NCBI GenBank assembly: GCA_964441745.1
Contig: CAYTYR010000002.1
Coordinates: 106,325-126,324, forward strand
From: an uncultured Clostridia bacterium
Lineage (GTDB): Bacteria; CAYTYR01; UBA6262
Direction: 5' to 3'
DNA: 20,000 nt
The translations under genes were made by a program, and so were the position numbers. Below, piece by piece: positions 2,234 to 19,910 of this stretch. Numbering within the stretch: the stretch's first letter is position 1; every line of letters starts with the position of its first letter. The notes under the pieces are model-generated. The model worked only from the letters and a program-made list of their open reading frames with translations. It did not search any database and was not told the DNA's origin.

Positions 2234-2866
2234 ATGAATTACTTAGTATTAATAAAAAATCTACAAAAACGTAAATATTTCCTTTTTTCACTGCAGGATT
2301 TGATCGTTCTTTTCCCAAATGCCGGTAAAAAGACGCTTCAAAACCAACTTACAGCCTGGGTTGGCAAAGGCTATATCAGGCATCTCAAACAAAATCTATA
2401 TGAATTAATAGACAAAGGAGATCCGGATCAGGTAATTCCTGATCTCTATATCGCTAATAGGCTTTATTCGCCTTCATACGTTTCTTTGGAGACCGCTCTT
2501 TCTATTTACAATATTATCCCGGAAGTTGCTTTTGGTGTAACCGCGGTAACGACCAAGCCTACCCGTGTTTTCAAAAACCAGTACGGTCAATTTAGATATT
2601 TTTCTTGTCAGCCAAACGCCTATATCGGATATGTCATAAAAGAATATTCCGGGTATAAAGTTTTTATGGCGGAACCAGAGAAAGCGATCATTGATTTCCT
2701 GTACTTTCGGTTCAGGGGAAATGATCTTCCCAATTTTGCCGCTGAAAGAATGAATATTGCCTTACTCCAGAAATTAGATTGGCGCAAAATTTCCAAATAT
2801 TGCGGGTTATATAATAAACGAATGCGTAAACATGTCCGGAAGCTAAAGGAGTACGCAGGATGCTGA
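2234..2866 (+). CDS. abiEi: Type IV toxin-antitoxin antitoxin, AbiEi family (wHTH transcriptional regulator)
   Basis: Motifs IANRLYSPSYVSLETALSIYNIIPE, VTTKPTRVF and AEPEKAIIDFLY. The gene overlaps the downstream nucleotidyltransferase gene. Confidence 0.88.
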   Translation: MNYLVLIKNLQKRKYFLFSLQDLIVLFPNAGKKTLQNQLTAWVGKGYIRHLKQNLYELIDKGDPDQVIPDLYIANRLYSPSYVSLETALSIYNIIPEVAFGVTAVTTKPTRVFKNQYGQFRYFSCQPNAYIGYVIKEYSGYKVFMAEPEKAIIDFLYFRFRGNDLPNFAAERMNIALLQKLDWRKISKYCGLYNKRMRKHVRKLKEYAGC

Positions 2867-3645
2867 CCAGAGAAGGATTGCGAGCCCAAGCCAAGCTGTT
2901 AGGCTTGCCTTTAAATAAAGAAAGAGCGATCATCAGGGAGTATGCGCAGACTATTGTTTTGAAAGCTATTTATCAGAGTGAATTTGGCCGGAAATTGTTA
3001 TTCAAGGGCGGTACAGCTCTGAGATTTGCTTATAACTTGGGGCGTTTTTCCGAAGATCTGGATTTTACCGGTCAGGATTTCCCGGCGGATGATTTTTCAG
3101 CCGTGATCGCTTTATGCCGGAAGGCTTTGAACCAGGAAGGATTTAAATGCGTAACCTCGGAAAAGAACAAGGAAAATATAAAAGCCGGATGGATAAAATT
3201 AACCAATATCCTGCAAGAATATAAAATTACCAATATTAAAAGTGAAAAGCTGATGATCAAGCTGGAAGTGAGTCTTCCCGAGCGCCCTCTACAAAGAGAA
3301 CCGGCAGTCATAGATAAATATGGTTATTTGTTTACGGTTTCTTTGCTGGAGCAGGGCGGTATTTTTGCAGAAAAGATTGATGCTTTACTGCGTCGTTGCC
3401 GCGGCCGGGATATTTATGACTTGATTTTCCTGCTTAGAAATAAATTCTTGATCAATGAACAGGTTTTCCAGGCAAAAGGCTGGAAGATAGCGCCGCGCCA
3501 GGCAATCCTTGAAAGAATGGAGAAATTAACTCCTAAAGAATTGAACCGTTTAGCGGCGCAATTAGAACCTTTTCTGTTAAAGGAAGAAGAAACAGAGTAT
3601 ATAATCAATGCTAAAACATATGTGAAAGCTTTGAACATAACTTGA
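2860..3645 (+). CDS. abiEii: Type IV TA toxin, AbiEii/AbiGii-family nucleotidyltransferase
   Basis: Motifs LLFKGGTALRFAY...RFSEDLDF and AEKIDALLRR...GRDIYDL. Confidence 0.9.
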   Translation: MLTREGLRAQAKLLGLPLNKERAIIREYAQTIVLKAIYQSEFGRKLLFKGGTALRFAYNLGRFSEDLDFTGQDFPADDFSAVIALCRKALNQEGFKCVTSEKNKENIKAGWIKLTNILQEYKITNIKSEKLMIKLEVSLPERPLQREPAVIDKYGYLFTVSLLEQGGIFAEKIDALLRRCRGRDIYDLIFLLRNKFLINEQVFQAKGWKIAPRQAILERMEKLTPKELNRLAAQLEPFLLKEEETEYIINAKTYVKALNIT

Positions 3646-3669
3646 CAAAACAGGATTTTCTGCTATATT
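3642..3669 (+). promoter_or_regulatory. Sigma70-type promoter upstream of the nucleotide-sugar genes
   Basis: TTGACA 3642-3647 overlaps the abiEii stop codon. An extended -10 TGcTATATT follows at 3661-3669. Confidence 0.6.
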
Positions 3670-3686
3670 TAATAAAAGTAATCATA

Positions 3687-3808
3687 AAGTTAATAGTCAC
3701 AGGTTGAAGGTTGTAGAAGTAGGTATGGAAGTAGGAAGTAAGGCTTTAAGCCCAACTTCCTCAGACCTAAGACTAAACCTACTTCCAAAACCAATACCCT
3801 TTAACTGT
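3687..3808. repeat. Imperfect palindromic element (GGAAGTAGG/CCTACTTCC family), ORF-less copy 1
   Basis: AGGTTGTAGAAGTAGGTATGGAAGTAGGAAGTA-AGGCTTTAAGCCC-AACTTCC...AAACCTACTTCCAAAACCAATACCCTTTAACTGT. Very similar to 7238-7358 and to the arms at 9218-9278/9711-9770. Confidence 0.85.
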
Positions 3809-3831: not shown

Positions 3832-4779
3832 ATGTCAAAGTTTTTAGTTACCGGCGGGGCTGGCTTCATCGGCTCCAATATCACCGAAGCCCTGCTGCAG
3901 AAAAAGCACAAAGTCCGTATCCTGGACAATTTCGCTACCGGCAAGCTTTCCAATCTTGCCGGCTTCCGCTCCAAAATTGACATCATCAAGGGCGATGTCC
4001 GCGATGTCAAGACGGTCAACCGGGCAGTCCAAGGGGTGGATTATGTTCTCCACCAGGCCGCTTTGCCTTCAGTGGCCCGTTCCGTAGCTGATCCTGCTCT
4101 TAGCAATGCGGTCAATATTGACGGCACCCTGAATGTCCTGATTGCGGCCCGTGACCACAAGGTCAAAAGGGTAGTCTATGCCGCCTCCAGCTCTGCTTAT
4201 GGCGATACGCCAGTCTTGCCCAAGGTGGAGACGATGGCTTCCAATCCGCTCTCTCCCTATGCGACTACTAAACTAGCCGGAGAATTATACTGCCGCAATT
4301 TTGCCAGGATCTTCGGCCTGGAAACAGTCTGCCTGCGCTATTTCAACGTCTTTGGCCCCAAGCAGGACCCGGCTAGTTTTTACAGCGCGGTCATTCCCAA
4401 GTTTATCAGTGCTATGCTCATGGGAGAATCCCCGCGTATCAATGGTGACGGCCGGCAAAGCCGTGACTTTACCTATATCGAAAATGTAGTTTCAGCTAAT
4501 ATCCTGGCTTGTACCGCGCCCAAGGCCTCCGGCGAAGTATTTAATGTCGCCTGCGGCCGGCGTTATACTGTGCTGGAATTAGCAGAAAAAATAGCCCGCA
4601 TCCTGCGGATGGCCCTGAAACCGGAATTCGGTCCGGCCGCGCCCGGTGATGTGAAACATTCCCTGGCAGATATCCGCAAAGCCAAAAAAATATTAAAATA
4701 TACCGTGAAAGTGAACTTTGACGAAGGTCTGCGCCGCACTATTCACTGGTTTATTACCGGAGGAAAACAAGATGCATGA
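3832..4779 (+). CDS. NAD-dependent epimerase/dehydratase (extended SDR), WbpP-like UDP-N-acetylhexosamine 4-epimerase
   Basis: Motifs TGGAGFIGS, HQAALPSV, YATTK (YxxxK), LRYFNVFGPKQDP and SRDFTYI. RBS AGGAG. Confidence 0.9.
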   Translation: MSKFLVTGGAGFIGSNITEALLQKKHKVRILDNFATGKLSNLAGFRSKIDIIKGDVRDVKTVNRAVQGVDYVLHQAALPSVARSVADPALSNAVNIDGTLNVLIAARDHKVKRVVYAASSSAYGDTPVLPKVETMASNPLSPYATTKLAGELYCRNFARIFGLETVCLRYFNVFGPKQDPASFYSAVIPKFISAMLMGESPRINGDGRQSRDFTYIENVVSANILACTAPKASGEVFNVACGRRYTVLELAEKIARILRMALKPEFGPAAPGDVKHSLADIRKAKKILKYTVKVNFDEGLRRTIHWFITGGKQDA

Positions 4780-6619
4780 GGAAAGACTAAAAAAGATCGT
4801 GGAGAAAAAGGCTAAAGCCGCTATTATCGGTCTCGGCTATGTCGGACTGCCCCTGGCGGTAGAATTGGCCAAGGCTGGCTTTGATGTGACAGGCATAGAT
4901 GTGGATAAGCGTAAGACAGATGCTATCAACAAAGGTCTTTCTTACATCCAGGATGTACCTTCAGCCGAAGTCAAAGAGCTGGTCAAAGCCGGCAAACTCC
5001 GGGCGACCACTGACTTTAGCGTCCTCAGGCATATCGACACTATCAATATCTGCGTCCCGACGCCTTTGCGCAAATCAAAAGACCCGGATATTTCCTATAT
5101 TCTCTCGGCTACTGCAGAAATAGCCAAATACCTGCACAAGGGCCAGCTCATTATCCTGGAAAGCACCACCTATCCTGGCACCACCGAAGAAGTCATGCAG
5201 CCGATGCTGGAAAAGAAGGGGCTCAAAGCCGGCCGTGATTTCCACCTGGCTTTTTCACCGGAGCGCGTGGACCCGGGCAATCCCCAGTTTAAGACCAAGA
5301 ATATTACCAAAGTTGTCGGCGGCTATACTCCCCACTGCACCGAGTTGGCCGTGGCTCTTTACAGCCAGGCCATTGATAACGTCTTGCCAGTCAGCTCCAC
5401 CCGGGTAGCCGAGACAGTCAAGCTGTTGGAAAATACCTTCCGCTCGATCAATATCGGCATGGTCAATGAAATGGCCATTATCTGTGACAAGCTCGGTATC
5501 GATGTCTGGGAAGTGATCGATGCGGCTGCGACCAAGCCATTCGGCTTTATGCCATTCTATCCTGGCCCTGGCATTGGGGGGCATTGTCTTGCCGCTGATG
5601 AATACATCTTCGTAAAAAATGATATGGGTGTACAGACTATTAAAATCGGAGATTATGTAAATAATTTAAGCAATTCTGATTCCACTTTAAAGCATCAACT
5701 AAGGGATATTACCTTAGTTAAACCTCAAAATGCCCAAACCCTTTCTTTTGATATGCAAAGCAAGACCTTCTCTTATAAAGATATTAATATTATGTCCAAA
5801 AGAGCATATAACGGGGAAATGAAAAGGATCAGCACTACTGATGGCCGTAAGATCACCGTCACAGATAAGCATCCCATGCTGGTTCATGATGCTGAAGGCA
5901 CTATACAGATCAAATTGGCTCAAGATATTCAGCCGGGAGATAGACTGCCACTTTGTTCTTTTTGGAAAGAAACAACAGAAAATATCAGTAAAAAGTTCAA
6001 AAGACACGATTCTTTTGCTACCGTAGAAGTAAAAGCTGTTGACACCATGCCTGGGCAGGATGTTTATTCTATGGAAGTGGATGATACTAACACTTTTGTA
6101 TCGTCTTATGGCATTGTTACCCATAATTGCATTCCATTAGACCCGCATTACCTGTCCTGGCGGGTACGGCTGGAAGGGTATGAAGCCAGGTTCATCGAAC
6201 TGGCTGGACAGATCAACCGCTCCATGCCAGAATATGTCATCAACAAGCTCAACGATGCTCTCAATGACAAGGGTAAGTCAGTGAAAAATGCCAAGATCCT
6301 GGTCCTGGGAGTGGCTTACAAGAATGACATTGATGATGTCCGCGAATCGCCGGCTATTGATTTCATCAAGCTCCTGCAGAAAAAAGGCGCCAAAGTTAAC
6401 TACCACGACCCGTTTATTCCAAACCTGGGACATGAAGGCATTAATTTAAAGTCTGTGCCCCTGACTGAGAGCACGGTCAAGTCTGTGGATGCGGTAGTCA
6501 TCATCACCAGGCACAAGGCTATCGACTACAAATGGCTGGTTTCCAAGGCTAAATTGGTCATCGATACCCGTAATGCCACCAAATCCCTTGGTAAACGGGC
6601 TAATGTGGTGAAACTATAA
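4772..6619 (+). CDS. wbpA: UDP-N-acetyl-D-glucosamine 6-dehydrogenase (WbpA-type nucleotide-sugar dehydrogenase) containing an intein
   Basis: GGAGG precedes ATG 4772, which overlaps the upstream stop. Motifs IGLGYVGLP, ICVPTP, ESTTYPGTT, FSPERVDPGN, KLLENTFR, PGPGIGGH-[intein]-CIPLDPHYL and GVAYKNDIDDVRESP. Confidence 0.88.
   Translation: MHEERLKKIVEKKAKAAIIGLGYVGLPLAVELAKAGFDVTGIDVDKRKTDAINKGLSYIQDVPSAEVKELVKAGKLRATTDFSVLRHIDTINICVPTPLRKSKDPDISYILSATAEIAKYLHKGQLIILESTTYPGTTEEVMQPMLEKKGLKAGRDFHLAFSPERVDPGNPQFKTKNITKVVGGYTPHCTELAVALYSQAIDNVLPVSSTRVAETVKLLENTFRSINIGMVNEMAIICDKLGIDVWEVIDAAATKPFGFMPFYPGPGIGGHCLAADEYIFVKNDMGVQTIKIGDYVNNLSNSDSTLKHQLRDITLVKPQNAQTLSFDMQSKTFSYKDINIMSKRAYNGEMKRISTTDGRKITVTDKHPMLVHDAEGTIQIKLAQDIQPGDRLPLCSFWKETTENISKKFKRHDSFATVEVKAVDTMPGQDVYSMEVDDTNTFVSSYGIVTHNCIPLDPHYLSWRVRLEGYEARFIELAGQINRSMPEYVINKLNDALNDKGKSVKNAKILVLGVAYKNDIDDVRESPAIDFIKLLQKKGAKVNYHDPFIPNLGHEGINLKSVPLTESTVKSVDAVVIITRHKAIDYKWLVSKAKLVIDTRNATKSLGKRANVVKL
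5585..6127 (+). mobile_element. Mini-intein (181 aa, no homing endonuclease visible) inserted at the catalytic Cys of the dehydrogenase
   Basis: Starts CLAADEYI (block A), has ITVTDKHPML (block B TxxH) and VYSMEVDDTNTF (block F), and ends IVTHN|C (block G). Removal restores GGHCIPLDP. The segment is visibly AT-richer than the exteins. Confidence 0.93.
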
Positions 6620-6629
6620 TGAATCTGCG

Positions 6630-6938
6630 TTGATTTATTCTTTAACTGCTAAAGGTAATTTTTCTAAAGACTGGGGCCTAAAGGAACAGATACAAAGAGC
6701 CTCGGTTTCCATAATGAGTAATATTGCTGAGGGATTTGACTGTAGTTCTAGTATAGAATTTGCCAGGTTTCTTGGAATAGCACGAAGGTCAGTTTCAGAG
6801 GTTCAAAACCAGCTTTATATTGCTCAAGATTTAGACTATATTAGTGTGGCTGAATTTAAACTCTTATATAATAACCTAGAAGAAACAAGAAGACTAATAA
6901 CTGCCTTTATCAAGTATCTTAAAAGCCATAAGTCTTAA
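6630..6938 (+). CDS. Four-helix-bundle protein (23S rRNA IVP/S23/Avd-like family), apparently N-terminally truncated and possibly a pseudogene
   Basis: Motifs GLKEQIQRASVSIMSNIAEGFD and FLGIARRSVSEVQNQLYIAQDLDYI. The usual N-terminal F.DL..WQ segment is missing, there is an in-frame stop at 6609-6611, and only a TTG start without an RBS is available. Confidence 0.8.
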   Translation: MIYSLTAKGNFSKDWGLKEQIQRASVSIMSNIAEGFDCSSSIEFARFLGIARRSVSEVQNQLYIAQDLDYISVAEFKLLYNNLEETRRLITAFIKYLKSHKS

Positions 6939-6998
6939 CTCGCAACTCGCAACTCGCAACTCGCAACTCGCAACTCGCAACTTGGAACTCGTAACTGT
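6937..6998 (+). repeat. 7-nt tandem repeat (AACTCGC)x6 plus degenerate units, ending AACTGT
   Basis: Six perfect AACTCGC units (6937-6978), then AACTTGG AACTCGT AACTGT. The array starts in the stop codon of the four-helix-bundle gene. Confidence 0.95.
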
Positions 6999-7012
6999 AT
7001 TATGCATTTCGC

Positions 7013-7041
7013 TTGACAAACCCGATTTTGTCTGCTATGTA
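7013..7041 (+). promoter_or_regulatory. Putative sigma70 promoter with a dyad in the spacer
   Basis: TTGACA 7013-7018, 17-nt spacer, TGcTATGTA, with a GACAAA...TTTGTC dyad. It resembles the promoter at 3642. Confidence 0.5.
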
Positions 7042-7058
7042 TCTATATATCTTTAAAA

Positions 7059-7104
7059 CCCGCCTGCCCTCGCATCTTTGATTTGCAGGCAAATCAGCAG
7101 AGGG
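7059..7104 (-). repeat. REP-like GC-rich hairpin, copy 1
   Basis: Its reverse complement CCCTCTGCTGATTTGCCTGCAAATCAAAGATGCGAGGGCAGGCGGG matches 13799-13847. Core stem TGATTTGC/GCAAATCA. Confidence 0.75.
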
Positions 7105-7142
7105 TAACCTTATTTTAATGTAGTTTAGTAGATTCCCTACAG

Positions 7143-7184
7143 GCTACAAAAGTGTATCACTACACTTATGTAGCTTTTTATTTT
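7143..7184 (+). terminator. Putative intrinsic terminator
   Basis: GCTACAAAAGTGTA-tcac-TACACTTATGTAGC stem followed by TTTTTATTTT. Confidence 0.65.
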
Positions 7185-7237
7185 CAAAATAGTTGGTATA
7201 ACCTGGTATAACCAAATCGTACAATTTCAATAAAATA

Positions 7238-7358
7238 TGTTTAAAGTTTGAGGTTGTAGAAGTAGGTATGGAAGTAAGAAGTAGGTCTTAAGGCTTAAAG
7301 CCCAACTTCCAAAGACCTCAAACCAAACCTACTTCCAAAACCAACACCCAATAACAGT
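7238..7358. repeat. Imperfect palindromic element (GGAAGTAGG/CCTACTTCC family), ORF-less copy 2
   Basis: AGGTTGTAGAAGTAGGTATGGAAGTAAGAAGTAGG...AGGCTTAAAGCCCAACTTCCAAAGACCTCAAACCAAACCTACTTCCAAAACCAACACCC. Confidence 0.85.
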
Positions 7359-7399
7359 ATTTATCTCTGTAATCGTTTTTAAGAGGAGGTTACTTAAGT

Positions 7400-7576
7400 A
7401 TGAATGGTCATCTGACAGTATGTCAAGTTTGCCAAAGACTCCATTGCCATCCCAATACTCTCAAGAGATGGGAGAAACGGTTGAGCCTGCGTGTCAAACG
7501 GGATTACCGTAACTATCGTATTTACACCGAAGACGACATCAAGAGGATCGAATCCTATATTACCCAGGAAAAATAA
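7400..7576 (+). CDS. Small stand-alone MerR-type helix-turn-helix protein (58 aa; not in the ORF track)
   Basis: Strong RBS GAGGAGGT at 7383-7390. My translation is MNGHLTVCQVCQRLHCHPNTLKRWEKRLSLRVKRDYRNYRIYTEDDIKRIESYITQEK, which has the MerR HTH pattern TLKRWE...R...NYRIYTEDDI. Confidence 0.85.
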   Translation: MNGHLTVCQVCQRLHCHPNTLKRWEKRLSLRVKRDYRNYRIYTEDDIKRIESYITQEK

Positions 7577-7597
7577 TTTTCCCGAAAAGGACCCCCC

Positions 7598-9214
7598 ATG
7601 AAAAGTAGAATTTTTTTAATTATTTTTACTCTAACTGTAATCTGTCCGCTGTCCGCTGTCCGCTGTGTTTGCGCTGCTAACTTCGACGAACAGCATCCCA
7701 CTGCCCGTACTGCCGGCATGGGTGGCGCTTTTACCGGCCAGGCAGATGATATCGGTGCTCTCTGGTTCAACCCCGCTGGTACAACCCAGCTGACCCAGAC
7801 CCAGGCTATCTATACCAATCTATCCCCATATATCACCCGGGAGAATGTCCCCTATTATCTGTCCCAATCCTTTAGTATGGCTTTCCCTTTAACCACAAAT
7901 AATGCTTTGGGCTTTGGCTGGAACAATTATCGGGTCAATTATACCTACCAGGAAAATACACTGCTGATGAATTATTCCCAGAAAATCAATCCATTTATCC
8001 CTTGGGAAATCAATGACCTGTCTTTTGGCTTGAACCTCAAAGGCCTCTTCTATGCGCCCAGTGGAGCTGGAGAGGATATTTTTGATTCCCTTTCTGGCGG
8101 TGACAAGGCCAGGAACGCTTTAGGAATTGATGCTGGTGTGCGCTATAAGATCAACACGGCGCTTAATTTTGGCCTTTCTTCTATGAATATCAATGAACCT
8201 GCGGTGCATATCACTGATCAGTATCAGCGTCTGCCCATCCAAACCAGGATAGGTCTTTCCTATAAAGTGCCCATGCCCGAAGCTCTCAAGAACATCGGTA
8301 TCGAGCAAATCACTGCCAATCTCGATGGGATCCTGGCCCAGGCTGAATGGGAGTCCAATATCGGAACGGAATTATCCCTGTTCAATAATGCCATTGCCTT
8401 GCGCGGAGGAGCTAATTCAACTGAAGCGTCTGCCGGGCTTGGCCTGGGGAGCATACAAACAAAGAAATTTGCCTTTGCGTTGGATTACGCATTTATCTAT
8501 GGCTACGGCCGGGACTTGCGTGACCGCCAGCATATAATATCCATCAATGTCAGCCGCCTGCTCACCAAGAAACCAGAAACAGTAGAGACGCCGGAAGAAG
8601 AAGTATCACCTTACCGTTTAGGGCCGGATGACGTCCTGCAGATCATTACCCGCAATCATGATGAATTTAGCGGCAAATTCGCAGTCGATCCCTATGGCAA
8701 GATCTTGATCCCGATGATCGGCGAGATCAAAGCCGAGGATCTGACCCGTGAAGAATTCACTGATGTCTTGAGAGAAGAAATCGGCAAATATGTCGAAGAA
8801 GCCAATGTCATAGTCTCTATTATCCAATACCGCAGTAAGGTGGTATATATCCTGGGTGAAGTGCGCACCCCTGGCAAATACCCGGTGGAAGGCGATTCTA
8901 TCGCCCTGCGCGACGCTATTGCCGCCGCCGGTTTCCCGACTGGCCTGGCTGCCACCTGGAGAGTCTACATTATTAAGCCCAGGACTGTCCGCCCCAGCTA
9001 CAAAATAGTGAACTTATACAAAATACTTTATCGCGGCAAGATGAAAAATAACATCATGATCACTCCTGGTGACATTGTCTATGTGCCGTCTACCATGCTG
9101 GGCAAGCTGGCTAACAGCCTGAGCCATTTGCTTGATCCATTCTATAAGACCAGGAGCCTGGTTACGCCATTATCAACACCGACGCCATTAGTCGATGAGG
9201 ATACAACGAACTAA
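7598..9214 (+). CDS. Fusion of an N-terminal PorV/PorQ-like outer-membrane beta-barrel with a C-terminal Wza/OPX polysaccharide export module (Poly_export plus SLBB)
   Basis: Signal peptide, then ARTAGMGGAFTGQADDIGALWFNPAG and ...ALRGG...LDYAF...QHIISINV (barrel), then linker KKPETVETPEEEVSP. From aa ~339: YRLGPDDVLQI, VDPYGKILIPMIGEIKAEDLT, VYILGEVRTPGKY and ITPGDIVYVP. Confidence 0.8.
   Translation: MKSRIFLIIFTLTVICPLSAVRCVCAANFDEQHPTARTAGMGGAFTGQADDIGALWFNPAGTTQLTQTQAIYTNLSPYITRENVPYYLSQSFSMAFPLTTNNALGFGWNNYRVNYTYQENTLLMNYSQKINPFIPWEINDLSFGLNLKGLFYAPSGAGEDIFDSLSGGDKARNALGIDAGVRYKINTALNFGLSSMNINEPAVHITDQYQRLPIQTRIGLSYKVPMPEALKNIGIEQITANLDGILAQAEWESNIGTELSLFNNAIALRGGANSTEASAGLGLGSIQTKKFAFALDYAFIYGYGRDLRDRQHIISINVSRLLTKKPETVETPEEEVSPYRLGPDDVLQIITRNHDEFSGKFAVDPYGKILIPMIGEIKAEDLTREEFTDVLREEIGKYVEEANVIVSIIQYRSKVVYILGEVRTPGKYPVEGDSIALRDAIAAAGFPTGLAATWRVYIIKPRTVRPSYKIVNLYKILYRGKMKNNIMITPGDIVYVPSTMLGKLANSLSHLLDPFYKTRSLVTPLSTPTPLVDEDTTN
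7635..7669 (+). repeat. 7-nt tandem repeat (CTGTCCG)x3 inside a signal-peptide coding region
   Basis: CTGTAAT CTGTCCG CTGTCCG CTGTCCG CTGTGTT. Confidence 0.85.
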
Positions 9215-9217
9215 TTG

Positions 9218-9770
9218 ATAGTTAAAGGGTGAAGGTTGTGGAAGTAGGTATGGAAGTAGGTCTAAAGTTTTTAGGTTTAAAATAATTTGAAAGGTAAATA
9301 ATGGAAACTAAGAAAATCATCAGGAGTTTTTACGATTTAGATGTGTATCAAAGTACATATAATGCAAGCATAAAAGTAATGACTAAGATACTTCCAACAC
9401 TACCAGAAAGTGAGAAATTTGATCTAAGAGATCAATTATCCAGATCCAGCAAAGCGATACCAAGATTAATAGCAGAAGGGTATGCGAAAAAGCATCAAAA
9501 AATGGGATTCCAGAAATATCTGGATGATGCTATGGCAGAAAATAATGAAACAATCGTAAGCTTAAGTCACTGCAGAGATATTTATTCTGATAAAATTGAT
9601 ATTGATTTATGTAAAGAGCTTATAAACTTGTATGACATCGCCGGGAAACAGTTATATAGGCTTTCACTGGCTTGGACGACATTTAAACGGAAGGAAAGTT
9701 AGTAAGTAGTAGCCTAACACCCTACACCTTACTTCCATACTTACTTCCAAAACTTTCAACAATTAACCAT
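9218..9770. mobile_element. Putative palindromic element carrying a four-helix-bundle gene in its loop
   Basis: The left arm 9218-9278 (ATAGTTAAAGGGTGAAGGTTGTGGAAGTAGGTATGGAAGTAGG...TAGGTTT) and the right arm 9711-9770 (AGCCTA...CCTTACTTCCATACTTACTTCCAAAACTTTCAACAATTAACCAT) are imperfect inverted repeats. Mobility is inferred, not shown. Confidence 0.6.
9301..9702 (+). CDS. Four-helix-bundle protein (23S rRNA IVP/S23/Avd-like family)
   Basis: Motifs SFYDLDVYQ, LPESEKFDLRDQLSRSSKAIPRLIAEGY and FQKYLDDAMAENNET. Confidence 0.88.
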   Translation: METKKIIRSFYDLDVYQSTYNASIKVMTKILPTLPESEKFDLRDQLSRSSKAIPRLIAEGYAKKHQKMGFQKYLDDAMAENNETIVSLSHCRDIYSDKIDIDLCKELINLYDIAGKQLYRLSLAWTTFKRKES

Positions 9771-9797
9771 ATTTTAAAAAGGGGAATTAAAACAACT

Positions 9798-11171
9798 ATG
9801 GACCAAATCACCTTCAGCATCCGCGATTACTTAATGATTTTCTTCCGCCGCAAATGGATCTTTATCGTGGCTTTGTCTCTTTGCCTCATCGGCGGGATCA
9901 TCTATGCCCTTACTGCTCCCAAGGTATATAATTCCGCATCTATTATCTATATCCAGAAAGCGGACATTCTTAATCCCCTGATGGATAAGATGGCCATCAC
10001 CAGCCAATATACTGAGACTGTCAAGACCATGAGAGAACGTGTCTTGAGCTGGCCCCGGCTGGTCACTATGAGTGAAAGCATTAAACTGGCCAAGAATATC
10101 AAGACGCCGCTGGAATTCGAAAAGTACATTATTAACCTCAGGAAAAGGATCAATATTGAAATGTTTAACCAGGACTTGGTGCGCATATCCTTTGAAGACC
10201 AGGATCCTTATATTGCAAAACAAGTCGTTGAATATCTCACTAATAACTTTATCGACGAAACCATCCAGCTCAAAAGCGAAGAAGCAGTCAAGGCTATTGA
10301 ATTCATTAGGGACCAGTTGAATGTCTATCGCGACAGATTGGAAGCCTCTGAAAAAGACCTGGGTGAATTAAAAGTTAAAGCGGAAATTGAAAATATTGAT
10401 AAACTGAAAGGGCTGATTAAAGACCAACTTTCCAGGCAAGACAAGGTGGTAATATCAGAAGTCAAAAAAGAACAGAACCCGGTCGTTAGGCAACTGAATG
10501 ACCACTTGGCGAAATTAGAGAGAGAGCTCAGCGGTTTGCTCATTGACTCTACTGAACAGCATCCCCGGGTCCAGGAATTGCGCAAGGAAATCTCCAAAAC
10601 CAAGGCCAAATTATCCTCGGAGCTGGAAAATACCACTTCGGTCAGTGTGGAAGAGAAATCAGCTTCTAATCCGATTTACTCTGAACTGGACCAGAGACTT
10701 AAGGCCCTGGAATTAAAACGGGAAGAATTACTGCAAAAGCAGGAAGAAATAAAAAAGAAAAGCAGTAAATATAAACTGTCTAATGTGAGCGATGCCGAGC
10801 TTTCAGCCATGGACCGCGATGCCAAAGTCAACGAAGCTCTCTACACTTCGCTCTTATCCAAGATGGAGAGCGCGCGTATCTCGCAACAGATGGAAACCCT
10901 GGACAAAGGCACCAGGTTTAAAGTGATTGACCCGGCTCGTATGCCCTTAAAGCCATCCAAGCCGAACATTTTTAAATCGCTGCTCATGAGTATTGCTTTG
11001 GGACTTGGTTTGGGCTTTGCCGGTATCTACCTATTGGAATATCTGGACCATTCCTTGAGAAATATTGAAGACGCCAAGGCCTTCTTCGATAAACCGATAC
11101 TTGGCGCTATCTCCAAGATTTCCCTGGAAGAAGACGCCAATAAAAATCTCAATCGAGTCATCCGTTCATAG
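9798..11171 (+). CDS. Polysaccharide co-polymerase/chain-length determinant (GumC/Wzc N-terminal-like)
   Basis: DYLMIFFRRKWIF plus a TM helix and PKVYNSAS, a long coiled coil with TEQHPRV, then FKVIDPARMPLKPSKPN plus a second TM helix and EYLDHSLRN. Confidence 0.9.
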   Translation: MDQITFSIRDYLMIFFRRKWIFIVALSLCLIGGIIYALTAPKVYNSASIIYIQKADILNPLMDKMAITSQYTETVKTMRERVLSWPRLVTMSESIKLAKNIKTPLEFEKYIINLRKRINIEMFNQDLVRISFEDQDPYIAKQVVEYLTNNFIDETIQLKSEEAVKAIEFIRDQLNVYRDRLEASEKDLGELKVKAEIENIDKLKGLIKDQLSRQDKVVISEVKKEQNPVVRQLNDHLAKLERELSGLLIDSTEQHPRVQELRKEISKTKAKLSSELENTTSVSVEEKSASNPIYSELDQRLKALELKREELLQKQEEIKKKSSKYKLSNVSDAELSAMDRDAKVNEALYTSLLSKMESARISQQMETLDKGTRFKVIDPARMPLKPSKPNIFKSLLMSIALGLGLGFAGIYLLEYLDHSLRNIEDAKAFFDKPILGAISKISLEEDANKNLNRVIRS

Positions 11172-13428: not shown

Positions 13429-13788
13429 ATGAAAAAAGTTATATTGCTATTAAGTCTTTTACTGCTGACTGCCGTCTGCCATCTGCCGTCCAGCCACGCC
13501 GCGTTAAAAGACAATCTCTCCGAATCCTATCTCTACCCCAATCCTGTCCGCACCTCCTTGGGACATGATAAGGTGACTTTTGAAAACCTGACCAATAATG
13601 TCATTATCAGGATATTCAAAACTAATGGCAATTTAGTCCGGGAGATCAATGCCACTGACACCACTGGCGCCGTCACCTGGGACCTGAACAACGATAACGG
13701 CAAAAAGATCGCCAGCGGCATGTATCTTTATCTTATCACCAATGACCGTGGCCACAAACTCAAAGGCAAACTCGCCATCATCCGGTAA
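13429..13788 (+). CDS. Small secreted protein consisting of a signal peptide plus a FlgD-Ig/T9SS type A sorting-like domain only
   Basis: RBS AAGGAG and an MKKVILLLSLLLL signal, then YLYPNPV...IRIFKTNGNLVREI...WDLNNDNGKKIASGMYLYLI...GKLAIIR. Confidence 0.8.
   Translation: MKKVILLLSLLLLTAVCHLPSSHAALKDNLSESYLYPNPVRTSLGHDKVTFENLTNNVIIRIFKTNGNLVREINATDTTGAVTWDLNNDNGKKIASGMYLYLITNDRGHKLKGKLAIIR
13462..13489 (+). repeat. Degenerate 7-nt tandem repeat (CTGCCGT) inside a signal-peptide coding region
   Basis: CTGCTGA CTGCCGT CTGCCAT CTGCCGT. Confidence 0.7.
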
Positions 13789-13798
13789 ATACAGTTTT

Positions 13799-13847
13799 CC
13801 CCTGCTGATTTGTCTTAAAGGACAAATCAAAGACGCGGGGACAGGGG
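13799..13847 (+). repeat. REP-like GC-rich hairpin, copy 2
   Basis: CCCCTGCTGATTTGTC-ttaaag-GACAAATCAAAGACGCGGGGACAGGGG, an inverted homolog of 7059-7104. Confidence 0.75.
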
Positions 13848-13879
13848 AGTTTTGAATTTAGGTAAATTAATTTTACAGG

Positions 13880-14251
13880 ATGGATCTATTGATAAAAAAC
13901 GACATTGAGAAAAGGACGCGTAACTACGCTATACAAGCAATTAAATTAGCAAAGAGTATTGAAAAAGACGATATAAATCGAATACTGATTAGACAATATG
14001 TTAGATCAGCCACATCGCTTGGAGCTAATGTAGCTGAAGCCCAAGCAGCTTCAAGCAGAAAAGATTTCGTTAATAAGATGCAAATAGCAAGTAAGGAGGC
14101 TCGTGAAACAAAGTATTGGCTAAGCATAATGCGCGATATAGAAGTTTGCACTAAGGCTAAAATAGCAGAGAACATCCAGGAAGCAGGTCAAATTATCAAT
14201 ATAATAACAGCTATAGTAAAAAATACTCAAAAAAATGAAGCCTATTTTTAG
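13880..14251 (+). CDS. Four-helix-bundle protein (23S rRNA IVP/S23/Avd-like family)
   Basis: RQYVRSATSLGANVAEAQAASSRKDFVNKMQIASKEARETKYWL. Confidence 0.9.
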   Translation: MDLLIKNDIEKRTRNYAIQAIKLAKSIEKDDINRILIRQYVRSATSLGANVAEAQAASSRKDFVNKMQIASKEARETKYWLSIMRDIEVCTKAKIAENIQEAGQIINIITAIVKNTQKNEAYF

Positions 14252-14269
14252 GCCAGGGAGGAAATAATA

Positions 14270-15277
14270 ATGTTGTTTAACCTTAACTCAAAACTCAAAA
14301 CTTATGACTCAAAACTGTTTTTAACATTGCTGCTTCTATGCGCCGTAATCCAACCACGAACTCTCTTGGCCCAAAGCCATAAAAACTCCGGCGCCAACGG
14401 CGCCCAAATATTGGAATTAAAAACCGGCGCTCGCCCCTCCGCCATGGGCGGCGCGTTTGTGAGTATCAGCGATGATTCTAATGCTGTCGCCTACAATCCA
14501 GCCGGCTTGGCTTATTTGACCAAAACAGAGCTTCAGCTCAACCAGAACAAATTATTTTCTGAAGCTACTTCCAACTACATTGGCTGGGTCTATCCCTTGG
14601 ATGAAATGCATGCCCGCAATGTTTTTGACCTGGGTACTTTAGCTGGCAACCTGAACTTTGTTGATTATGGCAAGATAGCCGGTCGCGATAATTTGGGCAA
14701 TGACACCGGAGAATTCGGAGCCAGGGACAGAGTCATCTCTCTGGCCTATGGCAAGGCCTTTACTACTAACTTTGCCGTTGGCTTAACTGCCAGGCAAATT
14801 CGGGAAGAGATTGCCGCTGTCACTGCCAATGGTTACAGCTTTGATGCCGGTATGCTCTTCACCAATATTATGGATACCTTTAATATCGGCATTGCTGCCC
14901 AAAACTTGGGAGACAAGATCACCTTTGAGCAGGAAGCCAATCCTCTGCCCGCCAATTATGTCATCGGTACCTCCTTAAACCTCTTTGATAACAGCTTGAC
15001 CTTAGCCGCTGACCTGAACAAGCCAGTCCATGACTACTACCATTGGAACTTTGGCAGTGAATATTGGCTCACCAGTGTCTTAGCTCTGCGTCTGGGCTAT
15101 GATACCAAGCATGATATCGGCAACGGGCTCTCAACAGGAATCGGCGTTAGTTTGCAGGATTTTGAATTTTCCTTTGTCCCGCTCTCTGAACTGGCGATCA
15201 ACTATGCCTATGTTTCCCGCGGTGACCTTGGTGTCATCCACCAGATAGAGTTGGTGCTAAAGATAGGTATTGAGTAA
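14270..15277 (+). CDS. PorV/PorQ-family (UPF0164-like) outer-membrane beta-barrel protein
   Basis: RBS GGAGG and a signal peptide. Motif GARPSAMGGAFVSISDDSNAVAYNPAGLA, alternating beta strands, and FGSEYW...LALRLGY...INYAY...GDLGVIHQIEL. Confidence 0.85.
   Translation: MLFNLNSKLKTYDSKLFLTLLLLCAVIQPRTLLAQSHKNSGANGAQILELKTGARPSAMGGAFVSISDDSNAVAYNPAGLAYLTKTELQLNQNKLFSEATSNYIGWVYPLDEMHARNVFDLGTLAGNLNFVDYGKIAGRDNLGNDTGEFGARDRVISLAYGKAFTTNFAVGLTARQIREEIAAVTANGYSFDAGMLFTNIMDTFNIGIAAQNLGDKITFEQEANPLPANYVIGTSLNLFDNSLTLAADLNKPVHDYYHWNFGSEYWLTSVLALRLGYDTKHDIGNGLSTGIGVSLQDFEFSFVPLSELAINYAYVSRGDLGVIHQIELVLKIGIE
14285..14319 (+). repeat. 7-nt tandem repeat (AACTCAA) in the 5' coding region, ending AACTGT
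   Basis: AACTCAA AACTCAA AACTTAT GACTCAA AACTGTT, encoding NSKLKTYDSKL. Confidence 0.8.
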
Positions 15278-15301: not shown

Positions 15302-15387
15302 TTCCGGTTTTAGAGTGCGGCCAACGGGAGTCTCCGCCAACAAGCTTTGGCGGACGCAGCGCAGAAGCCTTAGTGGAGGAGAAGAGT
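15302..15387 (+). repeat. Intergenic imperfect-palindrome repeat, copy 1 (lacks the 5' CTCCGCCAC)
   Basis: TTCCGGTTTTAGAGTGCGGCCAACGGGAGTCTCCGCCAACAAGCTTTGGCGGACGCAGCGCAGAAGCCTTAGTGGAGGAGAAGAGT. Confidence 0.9.
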
Positions 15388-15554: not shown

Positions 15555-16844
15555 ATGCCTGAGAATTTTAGAAGAAAAATATTTACAAATCTTAAGAGTT
15601 TTATTAAAGATAAAGAAATTATTGTTATCCATGGTTCCCGCCAAGTTGGGAAGACATGGCTTATGCGTTATATTACAGACCAACATCTTAAAGATCTGGT
15701 GCCGAATAATAACATATTCTATTTTGACCTTGAAGATTTTCGCTTATTGGAGCTATGTAATTCATCCGCCGAAGAGGTCGTTTCCTACCTCAAAGCAAAG
15801 GGGGCAGATTTTCAACAAAAAATCTTTTTACTCATAGATGAGATCCAATATCTCAACAATCCCTCTAGTTTTCTCAAATATTTTTATGATCACTACCAGG
15901 ATAATGTAAAATTAATAGTATCCGGCTCTTCCAGTTTATTAATAAAGAGAAAATTTCAGGATAGCCTGGTAGGAAGAACAATGGAATTTGAGTTGTTTAC
16001 TTTGGATTTTGAGGAATTCCTGAAGTTTAAGAAATATAATTACGATCTTGAAGGAGATCTGCCCAAAAAACTGCATGAAGAGTTAAAAGTACTTTACCAT
16101 GAGTTTGTGCTTTTTGGCGGATATCCGGCTGTTGTATTGGAGAATGAAACAGACAAAAAAGAGTTAAAGCTGAAACAAATAATAAATACTTATATTAAAA
16201 AAGATATTCGGGACTTGGCCGAGATCAGGGATATAGATAAATTTAACAATTTGGTAAAGATGGTTTCCGCGCAAACAGGAAGTCTAATGAATGTTTTAGA
16301 GTTGGCTACTACGCTTGGCTTAGCTAAGCAAACAGTACAGGGATACCTGTTTCTTCTGGAAAACACTTACATTATCAGGAGAATTAAACCCTTTCACCGC
16401 AATATAAGAAGCGAACTTAGCAAAATGCCAAAGGTTTTCCTGGAAGATACCGGCTTGGCAAATGTTTTAATCAATAAAACATTTTCTTTTAATATGGATG
16501 GTAATTTACTGGAAAACAGCGTTTATTCCCAAATTCGCAAGAATATTCCGGTAGAAAATATTAATTATTGGAGAACCATTAAAAAACAGGAAGTTGATTT
16601 TGTAATTGATTACATCGATCGAGAAGGCAAAAAGGTGTTATTGGCTGTAGAAGTGAAAAACATGTTTCTGAATAAATATAGTTCTAATCTCCGCTACTTC
16701 AAACAGCAATATAAGCAAGCCGAGATATATTTTTGTTGCCTGGATAAAAAGGAAACATCAAAAGATAGCCAGGTTAAGATTATTTATCCCTGGGAATTAT
16801 TAAAAACCCTGAATCTCAAGGTTAAGCCAGGGATTCCTTACTAA
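15555..16844 (+). CDS. AAA_14-family ATPase with a C-terminal DUF4143 (PD-(D/E)XK-like) domain
   Basis: Walker A HGSRQVGKT, Walker B LLIDEIQY, VSGSSS, SLVGR, FGGYPAV, MPKVFLEDTGL and YWRT...EVDFVI...AVEVK. Confidence 0.88.
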   Translation: MPENFRRKIFTNLKSFIKDKEIIVIHGSRQVGKTWLMRYITDQHLKDLVPNNNIFYFDLEDFRLLELCNSSAEEVVSYLKAKGADFQQKIFLLIDEIQYLNNPSSFLKYFYDHYQDNVKLIVSGSSSLLIKRKFQDSLVGRTMEFELFTLDFEEFLKFKKYNYDLEGDLPKKLHEELKVLYHEFVLFGGYPAVVLENETDKKELKLKQIINTYIKKDIRDLAEIRDIDKFNNLVKMVSAQTGSLMNVLELATTLGLAKQTVQGYLFLLENTYIIRRIKPFHRNIRSELSKMPKVFLEDTGLANVLINKTFSFNMDGNLLENSVYSQIRKNIPVENINYWRTIKKQEVDFVIDYIDREGKKVLLAVEVKNMFLNKYSSNLRYFKQQYKQAEIYFCCLDKKETSKDSQVKIIYPWELLKTLNLKVKPGIPY

Positions 16845-16846
16845 TG

Positions 16847-16970
16847 ACTCCGCCACTGCCGGTTTTAGAGTGCGGCCAATGGGAGTCTCCGCCAACATCC
16901 TCCAATAAGCTTTGGCGGACTAAAGAGCTTTGGCGGACGCAGCGCAGAAGCCTTAGTGGAGGAGAAGAGT
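16847..16970 (+). repeat. Intergenic imperfect-palindrome repeat, copy 2 (internal duplication of AGCTTTGGCGGAC)
   Basis: ACTCCGCCACTGCCGGTTTTAGAGTGCGGCCAATGGGAGTCTCCGCCAAC...GCAGCGCAGAAGCCTTAGTGGAGGAGAAGAGT. It begins 3 nt after the ATPase stop codon. Confidence 0.9.
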
Positions 16971-17085: not shown

Positions 17086-17103
17086 TACCAGGAGGTGATA
17101 AAT

Positions 17104-17376
17104 ATGCTCGCCAAAGTCAGTATTAAACACCAGATTACGATTCCCAAAAACATCGCGGTTGCTTTTAATCTCAAAAAAGGGGACTTTCTGGAAATTGAGA
17201 GAAAGGGAAATAAGATTATTATGATTCCAAAAGAAGTTATTCTTGAAGATAAATATCCACAGGAAAGCCTGGCGGCCGCGGAAAAAATCCTGGCCAAAGG
17301 CCTGCCTAAAGAAGAAATCACCTTTAACTCAGGGGTAGCCGTGGTAGACTTTTTTAAAAAAAGGGTTAAAAAATGA
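17104..17376 (+). CDS. AbrB/MazE/SpoVT-family DNA-binding protein (putative antitoxin)
   Basis: GGAGGTG RBS precedes ATG 17104. Motif AKVSIKHQITIPKNIAVAFNLKKGDFLEI...KIIMIP. ATGA overlap with the next gene. Confidence 0.85.
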   Translation: MLAKVSIKHQITIPKNIAVAFNLKKGDFLEIERKGNKIIMIPKEVILEDKYPQESLAAAEKILAKGLPKEEITFNSGVAVVDFFKKRVKK

Positions 17377-17660
17377 GATATTTTGTTCTGCGTTCGTTTG
17401 TCAAAAAATTTGATAGCTGCACAAAAACAGAACAGGAAGCAATTAATCTTGTCATAGAGCAAATCAAAAATTATTTGGAAACCAATCAGGAGCCTTATGG
17501 ATTGAGAATTAAAAGTCTTTCCTTAAGGATTTATGAAGCCAGAGTTAATATTCACCTGCGGATTGTTTATTTTCGCCAAAAGGACATAGTAAAATTCTTT
17601 TGTTTAGGCGATCATGACGATATCAAAAGGTTTCTTAAAAACGTAAAGAAATTTCTGTAA
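17373..17660 (+). CDS. Putative RelE/ParE-superfamily toxin
   Basis: Basic 95-aa protein coupled to the AbrB gene, reading SFVKKFD...GLRIKSL...IYEARVNIHLRIVY...LGDHDDI. Confidence 0.7.
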   Translation: MRYFVLRSFVKKFDSCTKTEQEAINLVIEQIKNYLETNQEPYGLRIKSLSLRIYEARVNIHLRIVYFRQKDIVKFFCLGDHDDIKRFLKNVKKFL

Positions 17661-17750
17661 AACTCCGCCACTTCCGGTTTTAGAGCGCGGCCAATGGGAG
17701 TCTCCGCCAAGAAGATAGGCGGACACAGCGCCGAGTATTAGTGGAGGAGT
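17661..17750 (+). repeat. Intergenic imperfect-palindrome repeat, copy 3
   Basis: AACTCCGCCACTTCCGGTTTTAGAGCGCGGCCAATGGGAGTCTCCGCCAAGAAGATAGGCGGACACAGCGCCGAGTATTAGTGGAGGAGT. It abuts the toxin stop codon. Confidence 0.9.
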
Positions 17751-17773
17751 AAAGTGATTAAATGAGTAGTATT

Positions 17774-19022: not shown

Positions 19023-19033
19023 ATTAACCGTAA

Positions 19034-19128
19034 AACTCCGCCACTTCCGGTTTTAGAGTGCGGCCAATGGGAGTCTCCACCAAGAAGATAGGCGGACACA
19101 GCGCCGAGTATTAGTGGAGGAGAAGAGT
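19034..19128 (+). repeat. Intergenic imperfect-palindrome repeat, copy 4
   Basis: AACTCCGCCACTTCCGGTTTTAGAGTGCGGCCAATGGGAGTCTCCACCAAGAAGATAGGCGGACACAGCGCCGAGTATTAGTGGAGGAGAAGAGT. It starts 12 nt after the ATPase stop codon. Confidence 0.9.
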
Positions 19129-19274: not shown

Positions 19275-19910
19275 ATGCTAAATATTATTGAAGAAATCAG
19301 AGAAAATATTCCTCAGGATATTCTAACAGATGATATCCTTATGAATCTTAGGGATGGAAGTCCGAATAAGCGTTACGGAGTTGTTAAACGGGCGATTGCT
19401 AAAGGGGAGTTAGTCCATATTAAGCGGGGACTTTATCACTTGGCAAAAAAATATCAACGTAAAAGCCTTAATCTATTTGAATTGGCACAATGGATTTATG
19501 GGCCTTCCTATATTAGTTTTGAATCAGCTCTTTCTTATCATGGCTGTATTCCTGAATCGGTTTATGCTGTGATTAGCGCCTGCTCTCGAAATGCCAAAGA
19601 GTTTCACACCCCAGCGGGTTATTTTATTTATAAACGGATTCCTTATCCCATGCTTTATCTGGGTGTTGAACGAGTAAAATCCGAAAATAGTACGTTCTTT
19701 ATGGCCTCTCCTTTAAGAGCGGTTATGGATTATGTTTATGTTTATCGAAAAAACTGGAGAGGCATTGATCCGCTAATCAAAAGTTTGCGGATAGAAGAGC
19801 AGGCCATTAATCAATGGAATTATAGTTTAGGCTCTTCTCCTTTTCAAGTGGATGAATCTGACAGTTTTGGAAGCATACACGTAAGGACTTTGAGCCGTAG
19901 ATATTCTTGA
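19275..19910 (+). pseudogene. AbiEi-family antitoxin/regulator interrupted after codon 185 by an ISL3 insertion; the last ~26 codons are IS-derived
   Basis: Motifs GELVHIKRGLY, IYGPSYISFESALSYHGCIPE, MASPLRAVMDYVY and SLRIE. The sequence from 19830 onward is an IS end. Confidence 0.75.

Follow-up and report, generated by a model that had tools for sequence, protein, structure and literature searches.

A four-helix-bundle gene between inverted repeat arms in a polysaccharide-export operon: a candidate intervening-sequence-type cassette outside rRNA

In a 20,000-nt stretch of an uncultured Clostridia bacterium (contig CAYTYR010000002.1, positions 106,325 to 126,324; this whole stretch is called the window), a small gene of the 23S rRNA intervening sequence (IVS) protein family is enclosed by the two arms of a large imperfect palindrome at 9218-9770. 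All called genes of the window are on the + strand. The palindrome with its gene, here called the cassette, follows a Wza-like exporter gene (7598-9214) and precedes a Wzz/GNVR chain-length gene (9798-11171), after which comes a tyrosine-kinase-like ATPase gene. The cassette has the following parts, one of them compared with an orthologous locus in the metagenome-assembled genome (MAG) STB_132.

9218-9275, + strand: left (5′) arm, rich in G, A and T, with two GGAAGTAGGT(A/C)T units and an outer GGGTGAAGGTTGT segment
9290-9294, + strand: AAAGG, resembling a ribosome-binding site (RBS), in the loop 6 nt 5′ of the ATG; kept in the STB_132 ortholog
9301-9702, + strand: four-helix-bundle gene of the 23S rRNA IVS protein or 'S23p' family, 133 aa
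9713-9770, + strand: right (3′) arm, rich in C, A and T, with the apex motif AGCCTAACACCC at its start; matched over 9690-9766 by the profile of the ORF-less copies described below

The open reading frame (ORF) starts with ATG and has 133 codons. Its arms, found by a repeat search of the window, are 58 nt each, 74% complementary, spaced by 437 nt and composed of GGAAGTAGGTAT / ATACTTACTTCC-type units; the left arm corresponds to positions 5-62 of the profile. No promoter- or terminator-like consensus was found between the stop of the Wza-like gene and the ORF (9214-9300). When the RNA of 9205-9785 is folded, the arms pair with each other in both the minimum free energy and the centroid structures, leaving the whole ORF in the loop, at −133.7 kcal/mol (z −4.45; 0/100 shuffles as good). 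The duplex of the arms alone has −55.8 kcal/mol, compared with −28.0 ± 3.8 for 300 shuffles of the right arm, none of them as good (z −7.3). To score inverted repetition around genes, we took the 150 nt upstream of the start and aligned them locally to the reverse complement of the 150 nt that follow the stop; the best alignment gives the score. The cassette gene scores 48 and 17 other genes of the window score 11-18; the control for the value of 48, 300 random 400-nt intervals, gave a mean of 14.7 and a standard deviation of 2.9. At the junction with the gene the left side ends TAGGTTTA and the right side resumes AGCCTAACACCC, which fits the apex of the main ORF-less subfamily in MAGs (...GGTTTAG/AGCCTAAC...) better than that of the two ORF-less copies in the window. 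Neither the window copy nor its STB_132 ortholog has a direct repeat (target-site duplication) at its outer ends.

The protein passes the cut-offs of both family models, PF05635 with 59.0 bits (cut-off 33.8, E 6.1e-16) and TIGR02436 with 50.4 bits (cut-off 24, E 2.2e-13). Among 1.84 billion representatives searched, it has 690 relatives at E <= 0.001. By sequence its sole PDB match is 2GSC (E 0.0064). An AlphaFold2 model made from a 38-sequence alignment has four long helices with a mean confidence (pLDDT) of 95.5. Its top Foldseek matches are Xcc0516 (2GSC, template modelling (TM) scores 0.79/0.89) and BT_0352 (2RLD, TM 0.68/0.80); lower down come Avd of diversity-generating retroelements (DGRs; 4DWL, TM 0.68/0.81) and the Avd chains of the DGR ribonucleoprotein 8UBB. 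The model thus gives a predicted four-helix bundle near Xcc0516, BT_0352 and Avd.

At the STB_132 locus the same gene stands in the same hairpin between the same flanking genes. Two stretches of that MAG (L053 and L054) align with window 5360-11170, L053 over 7253-11170 at 79.5% identity. Between the two genomes the four-helix-bundle protein is 90% identical, the Wza-like protein 72% and the Wzz-like protein 84%. The gene has 0.041 nonsynonymous and 0.587 synonymous substitutions per site (dN and dS; dN/dS 0.07), and this dS, which rests on 133 codons, is below the neighbours' 1.05 and 1.76. Judged from these substitution rates the protein is under strong purifying selection. Since the filled site and the selected protein are common to both genomes, the filled state is old and the protein is kept by selection; the four-helix-bundle protein of the window locus is functional. 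No polymorphism between filled and empty alleles was found at the wza-wzz site, where the sole available ortholog is also filled. The sole presence/absence difference of a cassette seen between window and ortholog is at 6623-7111, where a second family gene with its heptamer array is replaced by ~98 nt in STB_132.

The palindrome occurs twice more in the window, without an ORF.

3694-3808, + strand: ORF-less copy A, within the 5′ leader of the epimerase gene that starts at ATG 3832; a TTGACA-17-TATATT promoter-like site lies immediately 5′ of the copy
7239-7357, + strand: ORF-less copy B, in the leader of a small MerR-like ORF (7400-7576) and the wza-like gene; a similar promoter-like site and a strong terminator-like hairpin are part of this leader too

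A profile of 26 ORF-less copies matches the window at these two places and at the split copy around the gene (9221-9279 + 9690-9766), and nowhere else in it. The direct-repeat families that link the three palindromes (D3, D5 and D6) are 75-85% identical. Copies A and B share the apex AAGGCTT(T/A)AAGCCC and fold into hairpins of −36.9 and −29.8 kcal/mol (z −3.5 and −3.25), and copy B is kept at the orthologous place in STB_132 (L054). Each of the three palindromes ends 24-42 nt 5′ of a gene start (ATG 3832, 7400 and 9798), with an RBS-like motif in between. A preliminary description of this DNA had reported inverted arms of ~60 bp around the gene, two ORF-less copies, the apex and junction motifs and the position of all three copies just 5′ of the RBS of a gene, and its observation is confirmed on each of these points.

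The leaders that hold the ORF-less copies have further features. A promoter-like motif CTTGACAAA ... TTTTCTGCTATAT lies 5′ of both polysaccharide gene blocks, at 3643-3676 and 7012-7050, and the second is followed by a terminator-like hairpin with a U-run (7141-7176, −20.4 kcal/mol, z −4.25). Motif and hairpin are kept in the ortholog, and together they suggest a regulated leader. Between the leader hairpin and palindrome B, STB_132 (L054, reverse strand) has an extra ORF of 338 codons that is not in the window. Genes for an AbiEi-like antitoxin and an AbiEii toxin (2234-3645) lie 5′ of copy A.

A scan of species-representative genomes with an exact 18-base motif of the left arm, which under-counts diverged copies, returned 87 stretches, 34 of them distinct copies of the palindrome and the other 53 unrelated (mostly a conserved Bacillaceae coding stretch). 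The 34 copies come from four MAGs: STB_132 (22), STB_115 (8), 'Elusimicrobia bacterium UBA6262' (3) and a MAG labelled Clostridia (1). Together with the three of the window, 37 copies have the exact 18-mer, and a profile search found at least four more without it. By form the 37 comprise 28 full ORF-less copies, five short ones in which the inner part is missing, two left halves and two filled copies. Where both neighbours could be called (31 copies), 26 copies are in sense between co-directional ORFs, three are antisense and two mixed (binomial p 1.5e-5; neighbour strands in the MAGs are from a crude ORF call); given the seemingly extreme gene strand bias of the lineage, an orientation bias tied to replication is inseparable here from one tied to transcription. 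The left arm typically begins 13-47 nt past the upstream stop, and the next start comes soon after the right arm.

No further filled copy came from the 87 loci when all their ORFs were searched with the family hidden Markov model (HMM), a model that missed the annotated plasmid members L103 and L106. Likewise, tblastn of the three family proteins of the window against the 34 palindrome loci matched the ortholog only. Two loci considered as further filled copies, L003 and L041, were rejected, each being a left half followed by an ordinary gene.

For the gene family at large we searched PLSDB plasmids by tblastn with the three window proteins (14, 31 and 27 records matched) and picked 27 loci by hand for taxonomic spread (6, 13 and 8 per list), giving with the three window genes a sample of 30. 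As controls for the flank score we drew 600 random intervals of 380 nt from these loci (mean 15.9, standard deviation 2.9, 95th percentile 21, 99th percentile 25). Flanking inverted repeats exceed the 99th percentile in 19/30 family genes and the 95th in 22/30; among the non-cyanobacterial plasmid loci 6/9 are above the 99th. The preliminary description had named this comparison beforehand as a possible refutation, and the outcome does not refute the idea.

The arms adjoin the ORF, and their sequence varies from locus to locus. They are tandem arrays, with a period of 7 or 14 in 12/19 left arms (13/19 counting either arm) and of 8 in five. Repeat units are related among close proteins, as the AATC-type units of L096, L104 and L106 show. 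The 5′ arm has at least 65% purine in 13/19 and is pyrimidine-rich in 0/19 (p 2.4e-4). Across the sample, which covers the window and seven named phyla, about two thirds of the genes show this architecture, among them a true 23S rRNA IVS: an Azospirillum locus (L090) is part of a 23S rRNA gene, matched by Rfam LSU at 2448 bits, and has heptamer-built arms of 36 nt, 86% complementary. As these arms are like those of the sampled family, the classical rRNA IVS shows the same build.

The sampled loci are found in restriction-modification, DISARM/BREX-like, CRISPR-Cas, efflux and polysaccharide operons, and the family gene often splits an operon, as between an RND adaptor and its permease, hsdS and hsdR, a helicase and a methylase, DUF1156 and Swt1-HEPN, cmr2 and cmr3, cas6 and cas4, or csx2 and cas1. 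Its strand agrees with both annotated neighbours in 20 of the 27 plasmid loci, is antisense to both in five and is mixed in two. An unannotated family gene between hsdS and hsdR on a Monoglobus plasmid (L095, 3001-3336), of which the HMM matches a 54-residue piece only, is probably a broken copy, though its 24-nt arms are well kept (score 38).

Evidence for movement of arms and gene as one unit comes from the plasmids. On a Dolichospermum plasmid (L100) the gene is bracketed by (TAATTCG)x4 and (TTACGAA)x4. A helicase gene is its neighbour on one side; on the other come a hypothetical gene and then a methylase gene. Two Nostoc plasmids (L115 and L116) have the same arms in the same copy number around a protein 86% identical over 115 residues, and their flanking proteins are unrelated to those on the Dolichospermum plasmid (no blastp E value better than 0.35). 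This is one cassette with identical arms in unrelated gene contexts. It has no target duplication; its flanks, like those of the window copy and the ortholog, tend to prolong the palindrome. Gene-less alleles did not turn up: with the Dolichospermum locus as query megablast gave the cassette in other contexts, and at a Planktothrix locus 3/3 megablast records were filled.

The repeat of the arms is itself dispersed. Over 50 kb of the Dolichospermum plasmid pAfl69 (L117) there are 10 TAATTCG / CGAATTA arrays. Eight of them (17269-23643) are no more than 6.4 kb from the gene and cluster at a helicase-methylase defence-like operon, both within it and beside it, and several fall in annotated coding regions; the same heptamer array is also found in other Nostocales plasmids. 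Such dispersed copies make homology available for recombination. The arrays inside coding regions could change the reading frame if their copy number varies. On a Chlorohelix plasmid (L096, 2865-3495) the gene is flanked on each side by a complete ORF-less palindrome of ~110 nt, the two being direct copies of each other. Alternative pairings are possible there, either each hairpin alone or the inner arms around the gene.

The window has three PF05635 genes in all (6630-6938, 9301-9702 and 13880-14251), and not the single four-helix-bundle gene first noticed. The two others pass the same cut-offs, with 100.4 and 71.5 bits for Pfam and 102.1 and 84.6 bits for TIGR02436.

6630-6938, + strand: second family gene, 5′-truncated (profile match from position 16 of 106), with no left arm
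6937-6990, + strand: right-arm remnant of the second family gene, ~7 tandem AACTCGC heptamers straight after its stop
13880-14251, + strand: third family gene, with weak, degenerate arms at 13847-13875 and 14268-14296 and CTCAAAA heptamers at the right

The second gene abuts the stop codon of a UDP-glucose dehydrogenase gene. The presence/absence variation between relatives that the preliminary description had suggested is seen for this gene, and not for 9301-9702, which is filled in both genomes. The third gene has a flank score of 25, at the 99th percentile of the controls, and shuffled sequences do as well as the duplex of its arms (z −0.24). Elsewhere, in the 34 palindrome-family loci, arrays of AACTCGC or CTCAAAA are lacking. 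ORF 14270-15277 starts within the heptamer array 3′ of the third gene (14270-14303); the true start of this PorV/FadL-like outer-membrane gene is more likely ATG 14304, ahead of a signal-peptide-like stretch. Another palindromic element occurs twice in opposite orientations, at 7041-7115 and 13787-13867, with 45-nt and 29-nt blocks that are 76-79% complementary; its hairpins fold with z −2.0 and −3.1, and the copy at 13787-13867 borders directly on the left arm of the third family gene.

Some other features of the window were noted. The UDP-glucose/GDP-mannose dehydrogenase ORF (4718-6619) contains a mini-intein (Pfam Intein_splicing, residues 333-470; window 5597-6125). As the dehydrogenase gene of STB_132 aligns on both sides and lacks this stretch of ~530 nt, the intein is present in one relative and absent from the other. 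A further repeat family of ~45-100 nt and 61-100% identity (15302-15387, 16842-16970, 17657-17755 and 19030-19128) trails each of four successive genes, including AAA_14/DUF4143 ATPase genes; it has no Rfam match and folds no better than shuffles (z −0.3 and −1.3). A MazE-like gene lies at 17095-17376 and a second AbiEi-like gene at 19275-19910, near the window end.

ORF-bearing 23S rRNA IVSs are known from Leptospira, Coxiella, Xanthomonas and Brucella, at helix 9, 25 or 45. The Coxiella IVS is described as a 28-bp stem of terminal inverted repeats whose loop carries an S23p ORF, itself decaying, with tandem GACAGAT heptamers in varying number 5′ of the ORF; its stem is cut by RNase III in vitro, and the ends were mapped (PMC4990558). 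ORF-less rRNA IVSs of the Salmonella type are listed in PMC2672173, and the family is also present in rRNA insertions of the candidate phyla radiation (PMC11270868).

The window cassette resembles these rRNA IVSs: its loop encodes a protein of that family, the ORF runs in the direction of the host transcript, and a long stem of terminal inverted repeats encloses it. The arms of rRNA IVSs hold tandem heptamers, as do most arms of the family, and short ORF-less forms exist there too. The window locus itself is not an rRNA IVS, since no rRNA is present (Rfam, rRNA included, matches nothing in the whole window at E up to 1) and its neighbours are wza-like and wzz-like protein genes. Its host RNA would instead be a polycistronic mRNA, or for the ORF-less copies also a 5′ leader, and the ORF-less form is dispersed in dozens of copies. 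Unlike the ORF of Coxiella, which is reported to decay, the window protein is under strong purifying selection.

On balance we find it somewhat probable that the locus is an IVS-type gene cassette without a transposase in the mRNA of a polysaccharide-export operon, consisting of a promoter-less PF05635 gene in inverted tandem-repeat arms. Such a cassette would be transcribed by read-through from the host operon, and its arms would pair in the transcript to a stem of ~45 bp, long enough for RNase III. By analogy with rRNA IVSs, RNase III would cut the stem, which would free the loop with the ORF and uncouple the flanking cistrons; with the loop released and the cistrons separated, an operon or an rRNA could carry the cassette at little cost. 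The ORF-less palindromes would be the same hairpin without cargo, similar to repetitive extragenic palindromes (REPs) in intercistronic spacers and leaders. Spread would proceed without a transposase of its own, and recombination via dispersed copies of the repeat is the most economical route, although a guess. A constraint on the transcribed strand is favoured by the polarity of the arms, the sense bias of the empty copies, the co-direction with neighbours and the rRNA precedent.

The preliminary description had proposed such an IVS-like element with filled and empty, MITE-like forms (MITE, miniature inverted-repeat transposable element), no encoded transposase and a protein of the 23S rRNA IVS family structurally akin to Avd, and this interpretation is partly supported. 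Family membership and structural kinship hold by the scores given above. The build is IVS-like, with an ORF and its own RBS looped out by a long stem as in L090 and the Coxiella IVS; the empty forms are a dispersed family; and no transposase, IS200-like domain or REP-associated tyrosine transposase (RAYT) was found in the window ORFs. 'MITE-like' fails in its strict sense, as neither a parent transposase (the view being that of the window and of 2-kb flanks of the other copies) nor a target-site duplication was seen. Like MITEs, the palindromes are small, present in many copies and bounded by terminal inverted repeats, and a longer filled form shares their ends. They differ from MITEs in that the filled form encodes no transposase and in that the whole element is one palindrome and not two short terminal repeats.

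Several points weigh against this reading. The antisense strand of the window stem is similarly stable to the sense strand (−57.9 and −55.8 kcal/mol), and both ORF-less copies of the window are more stable as antisense RNA, so that the pairing is not visibly adapted to the sense transcript. RNAalifold on 26 ORF-less copies gave only 12 near-invariant pairs and no compensatory change; one co-varying pair in the arms, spotted by eye and then put to a column-based test, is weak (Fisher p 0.03). Mismatches in 18 stems, examined for wobble on the sense strand, have no G.U excess (G.U 36, A.C 27, p 0.31). RNase III cleavage of the stem is an analogy with the work on rRNA IVSs. The only filled copies are that of the window and its STB_132 ortholog, 35/37 copies are gene-less and the two other family genes of the window do not use the 9218-9770 palindrome but other arms, which leaves the link between hairpin and gene resting on one ancestral locus. 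The 27 plasmid loci are not a random sample and are mostly cyanobacterial. In the sample 8/30 genes are at or below the 95th percentile (L089, L114, the truncated window gene, L113, L110, L107, L103 and L092), and 5/27 are antisense to both neighbours, including the locus with the best arms of all (L088).

One alternative, which we hold to be rather unlikely, is that an intercistronic repeat of the MITE or REP kind, the latter including bacterial interspersed mosaic elements (BIMEs), is unrelated to the gene, which landed in or was captured by one ancestral copy. The palindrome would then protect mRNA ends or be a site of processing, and a transposase from another locus would spread it. This agrees with the filling of a single ancestral locus among 35 empty copies, and with the different arms of the other two window genes; moreover, the empty copies are 75-90% alike and yet the three family proteins of the window have no mutual tblastn matches at E 1e-3. 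The sense bias and fixed neighbour spacing of the empty copies also resemble REP elements, and like the REPs, BIMEs and hairpin-forming REP doublets (REPINs) of proteobacteria they are short imperfect palindromes in tens of copies in transcribed spacers with an orientation bias. They have no sequence relation to these, however, and no RAYT or IS200-like gene is present (the window being what was examined for it); REPs are not known to carry a gene at the apex. A chance meeting is further opposed by the systematic occurrence of flanking inverted tandem repeats, in 19/30 family genes against ~1% of controls, and by the identical unit of arms plus ORF in unrelated contexts. With a different repeat unit in almost every locus, a single chance capture is no explanation.

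It is unlikely, though a live rival, that the arms act as DNA and that RNA pairing is a by-product. A hairpin or cruciform would be the substrate of a host recombinase, or the arrays would recombine or undergo gene conversion among themselves, and such a process would insert, excise or homogenise the cassette. The rival is live because there is no wobble signal, the antisense strand is equally stable and compensatory change is almost lacking. It also accounts for arms that are near-perfect with the same copy number in two contexts, for the gene between two direct palindromes of ~110 nt in Chlorohelix and for the ample homology of 10 heptamer arrays in 50 kb of the Dolichospermum plasmid. The polarity of the arms (purine-rich on the 5′ side in 13/19, never the reverse) points instead to a constraint on the transcribed strand, as does the sense bias of the empty copies (26 against 3), and neither a linked recombinase nor a target duplication was seen. 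A role of the arms in recombination at the DNA level may coexist with RNA processing.

That the locus is a remnant or satellite of a DGR, its protein an Avd-type accessory factor of a reverse transcriptase, is very improbable and for the window locus close to refuted. In favour are Avd itself, a four-helix bundle of similar size and fold (4DWL and the Avd chains of 8UBB), and the description of PF05635 as the commonest Pfam family near DGRs (PMC10053308). Against it, no reverse transcriptase domain was found in the 21 window ORFs scanned and no template/variable pair among the window repeats, the sequence similarity is marginal, the closest solved relatives Xcc0516 and BT_0352 are non-DGR, and the neighbours in 27 loci are varied operon genes and not reverse transcriptases.

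Tandem heptamer arrays are known from bacterial intergenic regions, often as inverted pairs, like the short tandemly repeated repetitive sequences of cyanobacteria, and most sampled family arms are such arrays; the window arm unit differs, its best tandem period being ~12 and not 7. The TRAP ring reads triplet repeats. We consider it a doubtful, wider possibility that PF05635 proteins are the trans-acting partner of widespread transposase-less hairpin cassettes, with a ring of the protein reading the mostly 7-nt units of its own arms. The ring may act on RNA or single-stranded DNA and control processing, protection or copying of the hairpin, and the intergenic heptamer arrays or palindromes of cyanobacteria, Xanthomonas, Bacteroidota and the window lineage may be cargo-less members. 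Arrays of ~4-7 units stand beside a protein with pentameric relatives (five chains in 2GSC and 2RLD), units are related where proteins are related (L096, L104, L106) and the protein is under strong purifying selection; these points agree with the possibility and are not decisive for it.

Solved relatives of the family are described as pentamers (PMC4990558). Xanthomonas genomes are described with 70-75 convergent pairs of GGGAATC heptamers each (PMC4692102) and Beggiatoaceae with TAACTGA arrays (PMC4679880); neither text was found to mention S23, four helix or intervening sequence, and so neither makes a link to PF05635 genes. Within cas loci 18 family genes were counted (PMC3936711). In literature that mostly left out subscription journals we found no description of inverted tandem-repeat arms at family members outside rRNA or of dispersed ORF-less forms, and a prior report is possible.

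For annotation, family genes with their arms split operons and can pass for CRISPR-like repeats, and they can mislead guilt-by-association calls in defence islands. The role of rRNA IVSs and of their four-helix-bundle protein has been a question since the early 1990s. If the IVS is the rRNA-borne case of a general operon cassette, this question can be studied outside rRNA, in tractable hosts. The idea, if true, would account for many intergenic heptamer arrays and palindromes that so far lack an explanation, and would add a kind of mobile gene that has no need of a transposase.

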